Part shown: positions 1,718 through 44,026 of the stretch, piece after piece
How positions within the stretch are numbered: the first letter of the stretch is position 1
Layout of the letters: each line of letters starts with the position of its first letter
Source: Porphyridium purpureum
Lineage: Eukaryota
Reading direction: 5' to 3'
Length of the DNA: 64,000 nucleotides
Assembly: GCA_008690995.1 (NCBI GenBank)
Contig: VRMN01000003.1
Coordinates: forward strand, 62,001-126,000
Translations under genes and position numbers: made by a program
Notes under the pieces: generated by a model
Databases searched by the model: none
The model's input: the letters and a program-made list of their open reading frames with translations, nothing else
Told to the model about the DNA's origin: nothing

Positions 1718-2920
1718 CTATTTGCTTGAAGTGTCTTCCCGCTCCAGCAACTCGATCGTGTCGATTTGGACGAAAAAGCTCGAGTAGTGCTCAGGCCGCA
1801 AAAGCACAAGACCTTCGGCGGGTGAGAGTGGAGATGGGAATGCCAGGCGCGCGTGAATAAGCGTTTGTGAGCTGACCACAGCGATCAGTCCCAGGAAGTA
1901 ACAAGTTAGTGAGAAGCGGTCTGACGCACGGTACTCACCGCAAAATATGCCTCCGCAGATCGATACATACGCTATCCACGAGCCCTGCGAACGGCTTACC
2001 ACTAGCCGCGCGTCGTACTTCTCAAGCGCGTTCGCAATGGACATGAGCCTGTAAGCGAAAGACGCCACAATGCCAATCAAAATGGACCCAATCAGAATCA
2101 ACTCATTCAAGCTGACGGCGTAATTGCGCGACTGCGGATCCAGCGAAAATAGATACAGCATGTCCGTGATAGAAACCTTGATGAGAATGTCAGACTGACA
2201 CGTCCAGTACGCGGTGCTGACAAAATAGAGTAGCACCAAGAGTTCCTGGGACGCTGGACCCAAGTCCGAGCTCGCCTTGTAATTTTGATACGCAATGTAG
2301 CACAGCACGCTGAACGAGCTCAAAAATAGCTGTGTGCACACAAAGACAGGTTCGCCAACGATGGCCGGCATTTGCGCAGACCGGATGAATGTCACTTGTC
2401 GAGGACCAAAAACCAAAACCACGACCATCCCCAGGAAGTACACGGCAATGTAGTTGGAAAGCGAGCCGATGGAAAGCCGGAAACCTGTGACCCTGGAAAA
2501 GAGCCTGTTTGTAAACACTTGAAGAATTGTCTGAAGGCTCATGAGCGAGCCACAGACGCCGAGCGGCAGTAAGAAGAGCAGCACCGTGCGGAGCAAAACG
2601 GCAATGATAAACAAAACAGCGCCCCAATTCCCGAGTGACAAAACTGGCTCGTCATTGTAGATGTTTGCGGTGACTGCAGATTCCATGCTTGTTTGCGTGC
2701 GTTGTTGTTGTTGCGGTTGTGGTGGTTGTTGTTGCTGCTGCTGCTGCAGATGATGATCGCTGCGCTCAGCGCGCGCCCCATGTTCCCTCATCGCTTGGTA
2801 CTGCAATGCCGTGCATGCGCCAGCTCCGCACAGTGATGCCAGCAGCCCCAGCGGTACACCCACGAGCCATGCCGTACCGTGGGGCTCTGCTTGCCCGGCA
2901 ACGACGTCGGCAAGCCACAT
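1718..2920 (-). CDS. NIPA-like (DMT superfamily) multi-pass membrane protein, putative Mg2+ transporter
   Basis: About 9 hydrophobic segments; VLVFGP and ALEKYDARLVV...ICGGIFCGEY resemble NIPA motifs; polyQ in the N-terminal loop. First ATG is at 2920. Confidence 0.6.
   Translation of the reverse strand: MWLADVVAGQAEPHGTAWLVGVPLGLLASLCGAGACTALQYQAMREHGARAERSDHHLQQQQQQQPPQPQQQQRTQTSMESAVTANIYNDEPVLSLGNWGAVLFIIAVLLRTVLLFLLPLGVCGSLMSLQTILQVFTNRLFSRVTGFRLSIGSLSNYIAVYFLGMVVVLVFGPRQVTFIRSAQMPAIVGEPVFVCTQLFLSSFSVLCYIAYQNYKASSDLGPASQELLVLLYFVSTAYWTCQSDILIKVSITDMLYLFSLDPQSRNYAVSLNELILIGSILIGIVASFAYRLMSIANALEKYDARLVVSRSQGSWIAYVSICGGIFCGEYRASDRFSLTCYFLGLIAVVSSQTLIHARLAFPSPLSPAEGLVLLRPEHYSSFFVQIDTIELLEREDTSSK
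2701..2748. repeat. (CAG)n/(CAA)n trinucleotide microsatellite encoding polyQ
   Basis: gttgttgttgttg...gttgttgttgctgctgctgctg on the + strand. Confidence 0.85.
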
Positions 2921-3092
2921 GGTCCCGACTGCACGCACCACGCACCATCTCCGCGCAAACGCCGAGGCCAGCCGCACGGTTGACTGAGTACAGCGATGTA
3001 CCCCTTTCGTGCGGATGGGTACAGTTTTCCGTGCGCCTCTCAAACGGGCAGGGGTACAGTTTGCAAATCTCTAGTAGAATCGACTGGATTTC

Positions 3093-3889
3093 CGTGGAAT
3101 TTTAGGGTTCCGCCCCGAGAGACGCCGTAGGGTTTTGAGTACAAAACCCTAGAAAGTTCTATGATGAAAGATTGTTCGAGAAGCGTGATGATCTCGGACC
3201 TGCGAAATGTTTGTCATTGTCGTTTTGTGTGGCCTTGTGCAAAGGTCAAAGGCCGGCCGAAGCTTCTGGATTCGTTCTTGACGCGCCCTCCCGGCCATTT
3301 TCCGGATACGTGGCCGGCTGTGGTTGCGAGTTGTGGAACGAATCAAAACCTGTGGTGGAAATTCGTCCTGTTGGAGAAATTTGTTCTCCCGTCCTTGCTG
3401 GAAAGAGCAAGGACGAAGGGTATAAAAGGACGAAGGGGCAAGCTGGTTCCCAGGAATTTCCAGGTCAAGGTAGAAGAAGAGGTAAGGGCAAATAGAATAA
3501 AAAGAGAATTGGTTAGTTGGATTGAGGCAGTCGTTGGAAGACTTGGGTTGGATTTGCGGGAGAGGCACGCTAGCGTGTTGTGCGAGCGGATATCGGTCTG
3601 GAGTGTTTTTAAAAAGGCAGCTGGGGTTTAAACGTACCTTCCATCACCCTTCACTTGTCAAGACCGGTCCACTCCCTCTCGTAGTCCCCTATAAGTTGAA
3701 TTTTCTGTCCTCTCTTCCTTTCTAGCCACTTTTCTCTGATTGTCCTGCTTGTCCTTCCGTTCGTTTCGGTGTGTCGGTTCGTCGTCGGTTTGTCAGTTTC
3801 CGGGGTGTGGCGGTTTCCAGTTCCTGTTATCGGTGAAGCGGTCCGGTTTTGTTGATTCGGTTACAAAGCAGAAAGGGAGAAATTCCAAG
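3093..3889 (+). repeat. 5' LTR (CGTGGAATTT...AAATTCCAAG)
   Basis: Matches 8057-8853 at offset 4964; by eye I see one mismatch (T3150 vs C8114). Confidence 0.97.
3421..3427 (+). promoter_or_regulatory. Putative LTR TATA box TATAAAA (copy at 8385-8391); AATAAA at 3496-3501
   Basis: GGG-TATAAAA-GG in the middle of the LTR, the usual U3 position. Confidence 0.55.
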
Positions 3890-3907
3890 TGGTATCATCG
3901 CCCGGTT
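3890..3907 (+). other. Primer binding site complementary to the 3' end of initiator tRNA-Met
   Basis: TGGTATCATCGCCCGGTT directly abuts the 5' LTR. Its reverse complement AACCGGG-CGATGAT-A-CCA has the layout of a tRNA T-arm/acceptor 3' end and parallels the plant iMet PBS TGGTATCAGAGC. Confidence 0.85.
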
Positions 3908-3918
3908 GTTTGGAGAAA

Positions 3919-4866
3919 ATGGAAAGCCATGAAATGGAAATGAATGTCCCGCAGGAGAATGCGGCATGGATTGAGGCAGCTAATCAGCTGCATGCGCGCA
4001 TTGCGGGACAGGAGATGATGATGGCACAAGTGCAGGAAGCGAATCGTAACCTCCATGAAATGATGCATGTTTTGTTGCGCCAGCAGACCGTGGCGTCTGG
4101 GTCTGGTGACAACGATCGTGCCATGGCCGCGTTAATTGGGCGCAGTTTGAGAAAGTTTGATGGTCAGCGTGACAAGCTCGTTGTCAATGAATGGCTGATG
4201 CGAATGAAGAGCGACCTGGATATCTGCATGCCCGCAGATGCTTTGGACTCGCAGAAAGTGATTGTTGCAAGTCGCTTTTTCGAGAGGGACGCAGCGCTGC
4301 TTTGGGCAGCTCGTCCGGAGGAGCAGAGAAAGGGCCTTGCAGAGGCCGGATGGGATGCGTTCGCAAACTTCGTGCGCACAGCGTTTGAGCCGCCGCAGGC
4401 GCATTTGACAGCGCGCACCAATCTGTATCAGTTGAAGCAAGGGAAAATGACGGTCGCAGAATTTGAGCAGAATCTCAGGATGACAGCGTTATCAGTTGAA
4501 GATGTGACAGATGCAGAACTGAACACCATCTTCACGCTGGGCTTGAAGGAGAAACTGCGTATTGAGGTGGCCCGTCAGGACACAAGGACCTTGGAAGAAT
4601 CACTGAAAGTTGCGTTGGCAGCTGAGCAGGTTGCAAAGTTCGGAGGAGATATGAGTCAAGTGATCAAGAACTCGTCATCGACTCATAGCAGGGCGTTCTC
4701 GTCGCATTCTGGTAGCGCACCAATGGATTTGGGAGCCATGGACAAGCGGAAGTCTGGCAAGACCAAAGTGAAGTGTTACCATTGTGGAGAACGTGGACAC
4801 ATTAAGCCCAAATGCCCTAAATTGAAGGAGCGCTTGGCAGGTGGTCCGCCAGAGCCGGAAAACTAA
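3919..4866 (+). CDS. gag: Retrotransposon Gag (capsid-like domain plus CCHC zinc knuckle)
   Basis: KFDG...WL...A..W...W..F...F; LYQLKQGKMTVAEF; FTLGLKEKLR; APMDLG; CYHCGERGHIKPKC. Confidence 0.93.
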   Translation: MESHEMEMNVPQENAAWIEAANQLHARIAGQEMMMAQVQEANRNLHEMMHVLLRQQTVASGSGDNDRAMAALIGRSLRKFDGQRDKLVVNEWLMRMKSDLDICMPADALDSQKVIVASRFFERDAALLWAARPEEQRKGLAEAGWDAFANFVRTAFEPPQAHLTARTNLYQLKQGKMTVAEFEQNLRMTALSVEDVTDAELNTIFTLGLKEKLRIEVARQDTRTLEESLKVALAAEQVAKFGGDMSQVIKNSSSTHSRAFSSHSGSAPMDLGAMDKRKSGKTKVKCYHCGERGHIKPKCPKLKERLAGGPPEPEN

Positions 4867-4918
4867 GACCTCGAGAGCCAAGACAGGAGGAGATCTCGAG
4901 GGGAATGGAGCCTCCTGT
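4857..4918 (+). promoter_or_regulatory. -1 programmed ribosomal frameshift signal: slippery G_GAA_AAC plus H-type pseudoknot
   Basis: Heptamer at 4857-4863 just before the gag TAA; 5-nt spacer; stem 1 CCTCGAGA (4869-76)/TCTCGAGG (4894-4901); stem 2 ACAGGAGG (4883-90)/CCTCCTGT (4911-18). The -1 frame is open into pol. Confidence 0.8.
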
Positions 4919-7900
4919 AATGGGTGTTGTGGAAGGTGTTGCGCACGAGGGTGCGAGGTCAAGGCTCTTCTACAAACATGGGAAAGTGAGTGGTTCAAAA
5001 ATCGACTTCTTGATTGACAGTGGAGCGTCGCATAATTTCCTGGGGTCCCGATTCTTGGACGCAAGCGTAAAGTCCAGTTGCGATGAATGCATGGTCGAGC
5101 TTGCGGGAGGACAGAGAATGAAGGTGCACGGCCCCATTGTGCTTGCGGTGGACCTCGGTTTCTGGATAGGGAACGTCGAGTTTTATATCGGTCCCATTCG
5201 TATGGATGCCATCTTAGGGTGGAAATGGCTCAAGATGGTGAATCCTAAGATTGATTGGCAGAAGGGACTGATGGAAACGAGGCCCGAGGGGAAGGAAATA
5301 TGCACGTTGGAAAATGTTGAAGAAGTGGTTCCCGAGCTTGACGGGAAAAATCAGAGCGTGGCTGCTTCGGAACACGAGTTGACTCACATGCCTATGCAAA
5401 GAGACTGTGAGACGTGTGTCGTGGCGAAGATAAAGCGACGCCCGGCCCGAAGGCTGGAGAAAGATGTCAGTGCATTGTCATTCAATGATGAAGTCGGAAT
5501 TGACTTGGTGGAGCCTGGGCGAAATGTGAAGTCGGTAGATGGTTCAAAGTTTATTTTGACGCATATCGACAGAGCCACAGGATGGGTGACATTGGCGGGG
5601 CTACGTGCGAAAACCCACACGGCGGTTGCGGACGCTTGGAAAAGTGTGCAAGCCGGGAGAGGATGGCCGAAGGTTTTGCGAACGGATGATGGGAATGAGT
5701 TCAAGGGAGATGTGGGGAGACTGGTGCGTGAACACCTCATAAAGCACGAGGTGGGGATTCCGTACAGGCCAAACAGTCATGCTGAACAGGAGCGGTTTCA
5801 CCACACGCTGAATCAGGGAATCCGTGCGAATCTTGTGCAGGCCGGACTCGGGAAGCGTTGGTTCATGCACGCCGCGCAGCATTTTGCGTTCATGACGAAT
5901 AGACTTCACGTGGGCAGGAAGTCTGGAAAGACGCCGTTTGAATTACGACATGGTGAAAAATGGTCGCCGAGAAATCTTAGTTTGCCATTCGGGTGCAAGG
6001 TGGTCTACAAAGATGATCAGCCTGACAATAAGTATGCACCGCGAGGAAAAGTTGGCATTCTCGTCGGCGTTGGAGAGCATCCGATGGCAATTTTGGTGCT
6101 TCCTCGGGATGACTGGACGAGTGAGACCCCAAAAGTAATTCGCACTCAGGATTTTAAGGCATTTACCCATGAGTTCCCTTTAAAGGGAATTGAACGAGAG
6201 ATGGTGAGCCTGAGCCAGCAGGAAGAGTTGCCAGAAGTGGACGAACCATCCGCGGTTGAAGCGGTGCAGGACTTGGATCGTCGTATCGATGCTCTCAGAG
6301 CTAGAGAAGCGGAGCTTGAGAAAGAGATCGAGGCATTGAAAGTGAGAGTGGTTGACGAAGAACGGGCAGCAGGCACGGGTGGTCCAGTGACGATCCCACA
6401 GTTGAACTTAACGACTTTGCTGAAAACTGGAGCGGCGTTGGCGTCTGAGCAAGGACGAGCCGCGATGGAAAAAGAAGTCAAATCCATGCTGAAATTTGGG
6501 GTATGGGATGAGAGTCCCTTGACGCTGGAGGAGGCCCGGAGGCAACCTGGTGCTCGTTTCGTACGCACACATTTCATTTTCGGTCTGAAATTTGCTGAGA
6601 TGCCGGAAGAATTTCGCAAGGTGAAGTGCCGCTTGGTGGCCGGGGGAAACAGGATATGGGGGTCCGATGGAGCTGCGACGAATGACATTTTTGATTATGA
6701 GACGCCTGCTGGTTTGTCAGCTATCCGAATGATAATAGCTGTGGCTGCAATTCTGGGCCTTCAGATTGTTAGTTTCGACATCAGCTCGGCATACCTCCAT
6801 GCGGACCTGTCTGGGCCACCTACGTTTGCATATTTACCGCGTGAAATTTGTGATTCAAAAGACACAGTAGTCAGGCTGAGAAAGGCGCTGTATGGCTTGC
6901 CCAGGAGCGGCTCGGATTTCTCACAAGATGCTCGGAGGAGATTGCAAAAGTTCCAGTGGAAGCTCGTGCATGGTGAAAAGAATGTGTACGTCCGGAGAAA
7001 TGCTGCAAGTTCGTCAGTTGCGTTGTTGGCTCTGTACGTGGATGATGGTCTATTAGCCTGTCGAGAGGAGGAACGCCCAGGAATCATCGAAGAATTGAAA
7101 CAAGAGTTTCTCATAGAAAAAGCACCAGAACTATTGACGGAAGGAGGATCCTTGAGATTCCTGGGGACGAGCATTTCCCTCAAAAATGGGAGCGTGAGTT
7201 TGGCGAATCAAGAGTATCAAGATGTGGTCATTCGGGAATTTGAGCAGGATATTAGACGCGTATTGCGTGCCGTGAAGTCACCATCTGAGAAGCTAGATGG
7301 CGAGGAAGTTCTGAATTATCAAGTCATCTGGAAGACTTTGAAAGTAAGAGAACACGTCGGGAGGCTGATGTGGCTCGCCAGAACGGTTCGACCTGATATT
7401 GCGTATGCAGTCGGTATGATTGCCCGGTACGTTGACAAGTGGAATGTGGCAGCAGAAAGGCTGCTCGTACGAGTCGTGCAGTATTTGAAAACACCTCGGG
7501 AAGCATTGGAGTATCACGTGTTGGGGAATCTCAAGGAAGGCATCAGAATGGTGAACATTCTTGGATACACGGATGCTGACTTTGCTGGTTGTCCAGAGAG
7601 TCGTGTGTCGACTTCTGGAAGAGCAACGTACTTAGTTGCTGGAGATTACAAGTACCTAGTGGATTGGTCTTCAAGAAAGCAGCGTTTCGTGAGCTCGTCG
7701 ACTTCAGAGTCGGAGCTGGCCGCCCTAGAGGAAACTGTGCAACTCTCGTTGTTTCCTGCATTGTCTTTCTTGCGAAGTATACGTGACGGAGAGTTCTCGG
7801 TGATTTTGATGTGTGACAATCAAGCTGTGATGCGAGCAATAGAGATGGGGTACTCGCCAAAGTTGCATCATATGGCGATAACCCGAGCAACAGATTTGGC

Positions 7901-8069
7901 CTGGTTGCATCAGGTGTGCGAAAAGCAGAAACTTGTGAAACTGGCATTTGTGAAGACGGACGAAAATGTGGCGGACTTAATGACCAAGGCCTTATTTCCG
8001 GAGGGCCACATTAAGTGCTGGGAGAAGTTACGCGTCCCTCAGACCGGAAGGAGGAGCGTGGAATTTTAG
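4905..8069 (+). CDS. pol: Retrotransposon Pol: protease - integrase - reverse transcriptase - RNase H (copia order); frame open from the slip site at about 4857
   Basis: PR FLIDSGASHNF...ILGWKWL..VNPKIDW; IN HELTH..CETC, IDLVE, RTDDGNEF, QERFHHTL, PFGC...RGKVGILVG; RT KCRLVAGG, FDISSAYLHADL, LRKALYGL, LYVDD; RH YTDADFAG, STSESEL, CDNQA, ENVADLMTKAL. Confidence 0.96.
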   Translation: MEPPVMGVVEGVAHEGARSRLFYKHGKVSGSKIDFLIDSGASHNFLGSRFLDASVKSSCDECMVELAGGQRMKVHGPIVLAVDLGFWIGNVEFYIGPIRMDAILGWKWLKMVNPKIDWQKGLMETRPEGKEICTLENVEEVVPELDGKNQSVAASEHELTHMPMQRDCETCVVAKIKRRPARRLEKDVSALSFNDEVGIDLVEPGRNVKSVDGSKFILTHIDRATGWVTLAGLRAKTHTAVADAWKSVQAGRGWPKVLRTDDGNEFKGDVGRLVREHLIKHEVGIPYRPNSHAEQERFHHTLNQGIRANLVQAGLGKRWFMHAAQHFAFMTNRLHVGRKSGKTPFELRHGEKWSPRNLSLPFGCKVVYKDDQPDNKYAPRGKVGILVGVGEHPMAILVLPRDDWTSETPKVIRTQDFKAFTHEFPLKGIEREMVSLSQQEELPEVDEPSAVEAVQDLDRRIDALRAREAELEKEIEALKVRVVDEERAAGTGGPVTIPQLNLTTLLKTGAALASEQGRAAMEKEVKSMLKFGVWDESPLTLEEARRQPGARFVRTHFIFGLKFAEMPEEFRKVKCRLVAGGNRIWGSDGAATNDIFDYETPAGLSAIRMIIAVAAILGLQIVSFDISSAYLHADLSGPPTFAYLPREICDSKDTVVRLRKALYGLPRSGSDFSQDARRRLQKFQWKLVHGEKNVYVRRNAASSSVALLALYVDDGLLACREEERPGIIEELKQEFLIEKAPELLTEGGSLRFLGTSISLKNGSVSLANQEYQDVVIREFEQDIRRVLRAVKSPSEKLDGEEVLNYQVIWKTLKVREHVGRLMWLARTVRPDIAYAVGMIARYVDKWNVAAERLLVRVVQYLKTPREALEYHVLGNLKEGIRMVNILGYTDADFAGCPESRVSTSGRATYLVAGDYKYLVDWSSRKQRFVSSSTSESELAALEETVQLSLFPALSFLRSIRDGEFSVILMCDNQAVMRAIEMGYSPKLHHMAITRATDLAWLHQVCEKQKLVKLAFVKTDENVADLMTKALFPEGHIKCWEKLRVPQTGRRSVEF
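8046..8056 (+). other. Polypurine tract
   Basis: GGAAGGAGGAG directly abuts the 3' LTR start (C8057) and lies inside the pol coding frame. Confidence 0.85.
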
Positions 8070-8853
8070 GGTTCCGCCCCGAGAGACGCCGTAGGGTTTT
8101 GAGTACAAAACCCCAGAAAGTTCTATGATGAAAGATTGTTCGAGAAGCGTGATGATCTCGGACCTGCGAAATGTTTGTCATTGTCGTTTTGTGTGGCCTT
8201 GTGCAAAGGTCAAAGGCCGGCCGAAGCTTCTGGATTCGTTCTTGACGCGCCCTCCCGGCCATTTTCCGGATACGTGGCCGGCTGTGGTTGCGAGTTGTGG
8301 AACGAATCAAAACCTGTGGTGGAAATTCGTCCTGTTGGAGAAATTTGTTCTCCCGTCCTTGCTGGAAAGAGCAAGGACGAAGGGTATAAAAGGACGAAGG
8401 GGCAAGCTGGTTCCCAGGAATTTCCAGGTCAAGGTAGAAGAAGAGGTAAGGGCAAATAGAATAAAAAGAGAATTGGTTAGTTGGATTGAGGCAGTCGTTG
8501 GAAGACTTGGGTTGGATTTGCGGGAGAGGCACGCTAGCGTGTTGTGCGAGCGGATATCGGTCTGGAGTGTTTTTAAAAAGGCAGCTGGGGTTTAAACGTA
8601 CCTTCCATCACCCTTCACTTGTCAAGACCGGTCCACTCCCTCTCGTAGTCCCCTATAAGTTGAATTTTCTGTCCTCTCTTCCTTTCTAGCCACTTTTCTC
8701 TGATTGTCCTGCTTGTCCTTCCGTTCGTTTCGGTGTGTCGGTTCGTCGTCGGTTTGTCAGTTTCCGGGGTGTGGCGGTTTCCAGTTCCTGTTATCGGTGA
8801 AGCGGTCCGGTTTTGTTGATTCGGTTACAAAGCAGAAAGGGAGAAATTCCAAG
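8057..8853 (+). repeat. 3' LTR
   Basis: Near-identical copy of 3093-3889, followed by the TSD ATTTC. Confidence 0.97.
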
Positions 8854-9032
8854 ATTTCGTAGGAGGCGCGCGGGGTTTGCGGTTCCGTCATGGAATGAGA
8901 ATTTGGCGGGCGTGCTGAGCTCGAGCAGGCTAAAGAGAGCCACGAGACAACCCACGCCACTGCCGTTGATGCTTGCCGCGCGCGGAACAAGCTAGGAAAC
9001 AGACCGGCATGATCGCGGCCGGACATCGGAGA

Positions 9033-9827
9033 ATGGGATTTGTGGGCGCCTGCGGTCCGCGCATGGGCGCGCGCCATGGCACACGGAAGAACGCTCTGGA
9101 TCGCAGCCCGCCGTGGCGACTGATGTCTGCTGGCGGCTCTAGGACAAGGCGACCGGAATGGCAATCTCTGCGCATGCGCGCTAGGGACGGTGGCGTTGAT
9201 GAGAAGGAATTGGGCAAGATGAGCCTGGGGCTGGGAATTCTCACTCTCGCGGTCGATTTTGCGAACCGGCTTGGCGTGCTCAATTCTGTTGAAGGCGTAC
9301 AAAGCCGGAGCGATCTCGTCGGGGTGATATGCGGCGTCACCATGATTCTGTACGGCCTGGCAACTCGTGATGTGAATGTCAGGGCAGAGCAGCAAGTTGA
9401 GCTGGATGGCCAATTTGTTGACGAAAAAGGTGCGGACGTTGTCAGTGAAAGCGCTCTCCAAAAGCTGCGCGGCGCCGCGCGCTCTGTGTGCGATGCCACG
9501 ACGGTGCGAAGCGTGATTGTCCTGAAAGCGGGGCAGGTGCTGTATCGATATGGTGTCATGGGTCAGGCTGCCACAGTCGACACCGACGCAGAAATCATCA
9601 AGCAAGCGCTGAGTAAGCCATCGCGCACGTACTTTGCCCGCGTGGAGATCTTGCCCGCGAAAGAGCAGCTCAACTTTTTGCCAAACAATGTCCAGGCAGT
9701 TCTTTTCGAGCCCCTTCCAGAAAATGGGCTCCTTATCCTGGGCGCGAGCAAGGTCCGTCCATTTACCCCTGAAGACTTTGGATGGATTCGAGCCTTGTCA
9801 AACCTGATTGCATCTCTTGAGCTTTGA
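9033..9827 (+). CDS. CCB4: Cytochrome b6f heme ci assembly factor of the CCB2/CCB4 family (CCB4-like), plastid-targeted
   Basis: ANRL...QSRSDLVGV...ILYGL and FLPNNVQAVLFEPL..NGLLILG...RPFT.EDFGWI; start MGFVGA resembles a transit peptide. Confidence 0.8.
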   Translation: MGFVGACGPRMGARHGTRKNALDRSPPWRLMSAGGSRTRRPEWQSLRMRARDGGVDEKELGKMSLGLGILTLAVDFANRLGVLNSVEGVQSRSDLVGVICGVTMILYGLATRDVNVRAEQQVELDGQFVDEKGADVVSESALQKLRGAARSVCDATTVRSVIVLKAGQVLYRYGVMGQAATVDTDAEIIKQALSKPSRTYFARVEILPAKEQLNFLPNNVQAVLFEPLPENGLLILGASKVRPFTPEDFGWIRALSNLIASLEL

Positions 9828-43500: not shown

Positions 43501-44026
43501 GTCGTTCTTGAAAGAGACTCCGGCGAGGAGCCTGCTCGTCACCGCGAGCACATGCCACTTTCCCCACCTCCCACAACGCCACTCTCCATCTCCCGGTTAT
43601 TCAATTTTGTTCAGCTTCCACTGCGAGGTTGTCCCACTGTGTGTCCAGTGTACCTTCATACTGTACACAAACACGTGTTTCACTGACCAAAAAATCAGAA
43701 AGAAGGCGCGACAACATTGACTGAAAGTGAGCGTTTTTGATAGCAAAGAGAGCGAGCGCTAACGCGCCGTGGGATTTGTTTTTTTTTCGTTAGGGTTGAG
43801 ATGAGGAAACGGTACAGTGGCGGGTGGGATAGAGTACAGTTGAGCTGCGAGGTTGGAAGTGCCGTGGTTTGGGTGTGAGGAGGTTGGGGAAGGAAGGAAA
43901 GAAAGAGAGAGAGAAGGTAATGTGAATGTGTTGGATGTTTAGAGGTACAGAGAGAAAGAGAAGGGAGTCTGTGGTGCTCGCTGGAAGAAGAATATACAGA
44001 GATAGAGGCACAGGTTCTACGTGGTC

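Follow-up and report, generated by a model that had tools for sequence, protein, structure and literature searches.

Structure of the element

The window (the whole 64-kb stretch of DNA analysed) contains an intact copia-type LTR retrotransposon of 5761 nt at positions 3093-8853, on the plus strand, as are all of its features given below. Protein records of Porphyridium purpureum match its Pol at 99-100% identity. The element lies between two divergent host ORFs, one on the minus strand (1718-2920) and one of the CCB2/CCB4 family on the plus strand (9009-9827), which are 322 nt apart in the empty allele. The LTRs are 797 nt each (5' LTR, 3093-3889; 3' LTR, 8057-8853) and have the form CG-TGGAATTT...AAATTCCA-AG. 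A TATAAA at 3421 and an AATAAA at 3496 lie inside the 5' LTR. Because the two LTRs differ at only one base (3150/8114), the insertion is very young. Neither a solo LTR nor a second copy of the element is present in the window.

An 18-nt primer binding site (PBS) at 3890-3907 follows the 5' LTR, and the polypurine tract (PPT), an 11-nt purine run at 8046-8056, precedes the 3' LTR. The PBS is presumably that for initiator tRNA-Met; its acceptor-stem part is unlike that of the usual plant and animal initiator-Met PBS and would imply an unusual host tRNA. No tRNA gene was found in the 64-kb window. The paired LTRs, PBS, PPT and short target-site duplication (TSD) are all as in Ty1/copia elements.

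The gag ORF (3919-4866) encodes capsid families of the Ty3/gypsy type and a zinc knuckle, and the pol frame (4821-8069) encodes protease (residues 54-138), integrase (core plus SH3, to residue 451), RVT_2 reverse transcriptase (RT; residues 581-808) and RNase H. This PR-IN-RT-RH order is that of Ty1/copia; neither the Ty3/gypsy order PR-RT-RH-IN nor RVT_1 was found in the element. The RT is of the copia type, the best protein matches are copia proteins, and PF07727 is matched with an E value of 1.7e-18. Gag matches Retrotrans_gag and Ty3_capsid and the protease matches gag-asp_proteas; the copia-type Gag and protease families Retrotran_gag_2 and Pol_BBD are absent, unlike in P0066. On these matches the element is copia-type by pol order and RT, with a Gag and protease of the Ty3 type. 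A Gag-protease module swap is suggested. A search for longer Gag relatives returned only Porphyridium proteins, and no gypsy donor was identified among them. PyRE10G is a red-algal copia element with gypsy-like parts.

The gag and pol frames differ. The gag stop is immediately preceded by the motif G_GAA_AAC, which together with a downstream hairpin (z -2.6, 4864-4930) forms a candidate -1 frameshift signal at 4857-4901. A -1 frameshift between gag and pol is predicted and is likely, and would be unusual for copia. The Gag of the sister family also ends in PEN.

Related families in Porphyridium

At least 16 protein records belong to the cluster of the 3093-8853 family, and 17 form a sister cluster of about 70% identity. 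The other P. purpureum copia families (P0003/P0052, which is the sister, P0073 and P0075) were compared by their proteins only. In an RT-RH tree (FastTree, 73 usable of 133 sequences, midpoint root, unnamed outgroups) the element groups with the sister P0052 with a support of 1.0, and both lie within a Porphyridium-rich group supported at 0.965. This group includes members with Asn-Gly in the integrase loop discussed below, one of which, P0066, has a copia-type Gag. P0052, P0073 and P0075 resemble the element in combining a Ty3-type Gag and protease with copia-type IN-RT-RH, and in their His-Ala loop.

Contigs of the sister family agree with the element in the PPT and in TGGA but have two different letters between them (rows at 8062; run X2). 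Pol of the sister ends in GRRSMD, and that of the 3093-8853 family in GRRSVEF, from which it is inferred that CA replaces CG in the sister. The sister family would support an end design in which the core is fixed and the second base can vary.

The viral contigs, metagenome contigs and prokaryote genomes searched contained no DNA of related elements. A set of 45 pattern-match loci considered as relatives contained no retroelement by tblastn or blastn, and these are chance matches. Two metagenome relatives, P0007 and P0069, have a permuted order in which the C-terminal part of RT and RNase H precede integrase and the N-terminal part of RT.

Element ends and target-site duplication

Identity between the LTRs ends exactly at CG (3093-3094) on the left and AG (8852-8853) on the right, and thus extends two nucleotides past TG...CA on each side, as the original prediction had it. 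The same pairs occur at the inner edges, where CG occupies 8057-8058 and AG (3888-3889) separates CA from the PBS. Aligning the LTR start to the reverse complement of the LTR end gives a match at position 1, a mismatch at position 2 and matches at positions 3-10; a run of 8 consecutive matches has a chance probability of 1.5e-5. Positions 3-10 are the inner 8-bp inverted repeat, whose left arm (3095-3102) starts with TG and whose right arm (3880-3887) ends with CA.

The two copies of the TSD, ATTTC, lie directly outside CG and AG at 3088-3092 and 8854-8858, which confirms their predicted position. When pairs of possible boundaries were scanned (left 3089-3099, right 8847-8857), 3093/8853 gave a 5-nt duplication and 3093/8852 a 6-nt one. 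TG...CA limits (3095/8851) gave no duplication of 4 nt or more, again as expected from the earlier reading, so the canonical layout is not that of this element. The coordinates also bear out that there is no gap between the PBS and AG, nor between the purine run and CG. Because both primer sites directly touch these dinucleotides, the integrated ends would be the same as the predicted raw cDNA ends.

The pol frame crosses the PPT, the terminal CG and the left arm of the inverted repeat and has its stop inside the 3' LTR, so that the sequence of this end is also coding.

Other copies and the empty site

Further copies were read from contigs of 8 of 19 runs holding the stretch, from 5 studies, over the region 2700-9300. 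Among 33 listed loose-end rows (6 further exist, and 6 more were dropped at repeats), 22 lie at LTR ends of the 3093-8853 family, 7 at the left end and 15 at the right. The rows come in two sets, with 7 of 13 and 15 of 20 at the family's LTR ends. All 7 left-end rows break outside CG and all 15 right-end rows break outside AG; none of the 22 breaks at TG or CA. The remaining 11 listed rows are internal, adapter-like, or belong to the sister family.

The sequences beyond these ends differ from copy to copy. Besides that of the window there are 4 distinct left flanks, with AAAAG, ACACC, GACCC and TGGAG as their last five letters. There are 10 distinct right flanks, each from a single contig (two rows pooling 2 and 3 contigs are excluded from the flank counts), and their first five letters are AAAAG, TGGAT (twice), AGAAT, GAACG, ATTTA, GACCC, AAGAC, TAAGT and ATTTC. 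Left and right flanks were paired by identity of these 5-mers, not by a shared contig, and exact matches were found in 2 of the 40 combinations (0.04 expected, P 7e-4), leaving 2 of the 4 left flanks without an exact partner. The matched pairs are AAAAG in run X1 and GACCC in run X6, each inside one run. Left TGGAG and right TGGAT, which agree at 4 of 5 letters, were considered as a sign of ragged ends; 2 such pairs among 40, with 0.59 expected, are not significant, and the reference context introduces a bias into each of them.

The same flanks bear on the length of the duplication. CCAA is followed by G in all 10 of the other single-contig right flanks (chance 2e-6), and neither of the two paired copies has G before its left 5-mer, the bases there being T and A. 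Because G is constant on the right and absent before these left 5-mers, the terminal G is part of the element and the duplication is 5 bp.

An empty site is present in run X6, where a joint from 3086 to 8853 skips 5766 nt, which is 5761 + 5; its short side has 43 letters. This allele has a single ATTTC and no CG, and by itself fits both a 5-bp and a 6-bp duplication (both = 6). In run X3 the LTR is found as one contig of exactly 3093-3889, unbroken at TG or CA, making it unlikely that copies with TG or CA as their ends are common in X3. The junctions of the window copy itself are present in runs X1 and X7; the window may derive from these runs, which therefore give no independent confirmation of the window copy; the other flanks in X1 and X7 are separate insertions. 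For runs X2, X3, X8, X14 and X19 neither the junctions of the 3093-8853 site nor the empty-site joint is listed.

The CG and AG ends are therefore real and family-wide, and the insertion is polymorphic between runs. Two results that could have overturned the original prediction, TSDs directly beside TG...CA in other copies and CG already present in the empty site, were not found.

Runs X1 and X7 also contain a joint that skips 1668 nt (4016-5685) with 8 shared letters, representing an internally deleted derivative. P0001 resembles the gene model of an internally deleted copy.

Probable joining of untrimmed ends

We consider it probable that the ends used by the integrase have not been processed, and that each is joined through its G-3'OH while CA lies two bases further in. 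The primer sites touch the two outer bases, so the most economical account is that the blunt cDNA enters the target just as it was synthesized. Starting from the PBS and PPT, reverse transcription would give a linear cDNA with the 3' ends CCA-AG and CCA-CG. Integrase would bind the inner 8-bp inverted repeat and use the terminal G-3'OH for concerted strand transfer with a 5-bp stagger, after which the gaps would be filled by host repair. As a working rule, ends would read CCA-N-G-3', where the final base is fixed and the penultimate one can vary. The geometry is in keeping with this proposal, in that the spacing from CA over two bases to the primer site is as in elements that trim two bases, and the perfect repeat begins at TG, with position 2 mismatched. 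The joined base is G at both ends, and a terminal CA-3'OH like that of Ty1 is found at neither. The original prediction that unprocessed ends are joined agrees with the retention of CG and AG in other copies and with the empty site. The joining step itself is something we infer; if the cDNA were trimmed at a shifted site, the integrated copies would look identical, and genomic data cannot distinguish the two.

Such shifted trimming is the main rival, and we regard it as rather unlikely. The cDNA would be one or two bases longer than the element, with a tRNA base on the right and PPT purines on the left, and would be cut after CCA-N-G, not after CA. This requires a moved cleavage site together with matching primer remnants at both ends, and since the PBS adjoins AG no extension of 2 nt is genomically encoded on the right. 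Yet all 22 listed rows have precise ends, as trimming would enforce, and the terminal G-3' is identical at both ends of the element. The RNase H cut is not fixed by the purine run beside CG, and could fall inside that run and leave ends needing trimming. In HIV-1, RNase H may leave one tRNA base, and a base retained in this way would likewise make an end that needs trimming.

It is improbable that the terminal letters have simply drifted, which would make this another non-TG..CA copia family (compare TG..GA, TA..TA, TG..TT and AA..CA) with an inner TG..CA that has no special history or role. TG and CA stand exactly two bases in at both ends, where they edge a perfect 8-bp repeat, and the sister family appears to retain TGGA while its outer pair has changed. 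Non-TGCA ends do occur mostly in copia (10.1101/137141; PMC5659011), 3 of 26 diatom CoDi families lack TG/CA (PMC2806351), and the pol frame that overlaps the left end may hold its letters for coding reasons; however, the plant non-TG..CA ends described in the accessible text of 10.1101/137141 comprise seven motif types, those of LTR_retriever, and all of them begin with T.

Insertion of unprocessed cDNA by host repair, and not by integrase, would account for untrimmed ends, but is very improbable given the 5-bp duplications in 3 of 3 paired copies, the exact ends at all listed junctions, the clean empty site and the intact catalytic triad. Capture of cDNA at breaks, of the Ty1 type, counts in its favour. 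The alternative in the original prediction, an element that ends at 8852 with the 6-bp duplication GATTTC, does fit both sides of this site, but both it and a one-off aberrant insertion are refuted by the flanks of the other copies, in two of which, when paired, the sixth bases differ, and they can be put aside with near certainty.

Integrase

The integrase (5349-6200) has an intact HHCC motif and D,D(35)E triad. D52, D113 and E148 are invariant across 44 sequences, and the HHCC residues are at least 90% conserved. The predicted structure (pLDDT 93) has an integrase fold, and its best matches are chains of retroviral intasomes. His-Ala precedes the catalytic Glu, where most relatives have Asn-Gly. 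In a survey of 151 proteins, 128 of which have a core longer than 110 aa, the residue pair in 127 cores is Asn-Gly in 73, Asn-Ser in 14, Asn-Ala in 12, His-Ala in 9 and others in 19. His-Ala is common to the 3093-8853 family, the sister and other Porphyridium families. The residue aligned to HIV-1 Q148, which is named as a viral-end contact (PMC2615046), is His. Intasomes that carry His at the corresponding position are named in PDB titles (6rwo, 8fnp). Because the loop varies in the wider group and intasomes with His exist, it is not specific, and as a cause of lost processing it is a lead, not an explanation.

In the zinc finger (5370-5420) only 6 residues separate the second His from the first Cys (H9, H13, C20, C23). 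This spacing is longer in typical copia zinc fingers.

Comparison with known elements

Ty1 of Saccharomyces cerevisiae resembles the element in its PR-IN-RT-RH order, in the tRNA-type PBS and PPT at the LTR edges, and in its 5-bp duplication. Its copia-type integrase is functional and joins ends without 3' processing (PMC8487063), which is what we propose for element 3093-8853. Ty1 ends in TG...CA, however, and its integrase requires a terminal CA, or at least A, in vitro (PMC8487063), whereas element 3093-8853 would join via G with CA two bases inside. A further counterpoint is that HIV-1 complexes are described as active only with recessed ends (PMC11054761). Retroviruses and Ty3 share the CA-NN spacing of the cDNA ends (PMC2615046, PMC8487063), but in these the two bases past the conserved CA are removed by integrase (PMC2615046, PMC11054761, PMC8487063), whereas element 3093-8853 keeps them at both ends. 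Lack of processing is known from Ty1, and what is unusual here is the joined G with CA two bases inside.

Several plant elements with non-TGCA ends are also copia-type and are missed by motif-bound finders, among them Tos17 (TG..GA), AtRE1 (TA..TA), TARE1 (TA..CA; PMC3701649) and the TG..TT and AA..CA families (PMC5659011). In the accessible parts of their descriptions these ends are treated as mutated motifs and start with T or A; element 3093-8853 starts with C, differs at both ends, and has TG..CA intact inside. The diatom elements CoDi3.2, CoDi4.2 and CoDi4.3 are algal copia without TG/CA ends (PMC2806351) and are likened to it here by description. The Drosophila errantiviruses gypsy, ZAM and Idefix, of the Ty3/gypsy group, have family-wide non-TG/CA ends (AGT...AnT), whose processing is given as unresolved in the available text (PMC5408687); primers for ZAM begin AGTTA.. 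at both ends and include no inner TG..CA (PMC2527525), unlike element 3093-8853. The red-algal PyRE10G and CoPorcru, also compared by description, are called GalEa-like, and metazoan GalEa has the PBS TGGTAGCAGAGC (PMC3587641, PMC5445492); element 3093-8853 has neither TGGTAGCAGAGC nor the TG...CA LTRs of GalEa.

Neither the ends of the 3093-8853 family nor two-sided retention outside an intact TG..CA was found in the full-text literature within reach, beyond which lie most subscription papers and Repbase. The accessible sections of PMC10959353, PMC13148404, 10.1101/2022.12.06.519325 and PMC2774666 contain nothing on retained dinucleotides.

The terminal CA-3'OH is treated as near-obligatory for integrases of the retroviral type. 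A family that is active and multi-copy, has its CA two bases in from the end and joins via G would provide a natural experiment on the coupling of end recognition, processing and strand transfer, and on the reason for the conservation of CA. Tentatively, a red-algal copia lineage with gypsy-type Gag and protease may have lost 3' processing, kept the ancestral CA-NN design and come to insert via G-3'OH (CCA-N-G); in that case several LTR termini published as 'mutated', and those of algal copia elements that end in C...G, may also be retained, unprocessed dinucleotides. Finders that require TG..CA beside the TSD would reject or mis-trim such elements in a small model red-algal genome. The family may in addition contribute to promoter variation, given that its insertion here, polymorphic between runs, is located between divergent genes.

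Insertion site

The target region (2921-3092), between the divergent host ORFs, contains three GTACAG motifs, all within 105 nt to the left of the insertion (2988-3059). A count by eye found GTACAG, on either strand, in 4 of the 14 flanks of 30 nt that come from single contigs; the corresponding share among host 30-mers of the window is 1.5-1.9% (binomial P ~1e-4, for a motif picked after seeing the data). A sigma-70 promoter scan is not applicable, the host being a eukaryote. By analogy with Tf1, for which promoter targeting is described (PMC7175516), targeting to promoters bound by a host factor is possible.

The domains in the spacer between integrase and RT are possible targeting modules. 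A Myb-like domain occupies this place in the sister (P0052, 797-846) and in P0066 (722-748), and the 3093-8853 family has a different, coiled-coil-like stretch in the same position, at about 6200-6400. Elsewhere in the window, a cluster of GTACAG motifs lies between divergent ORFs at 43661-43945.
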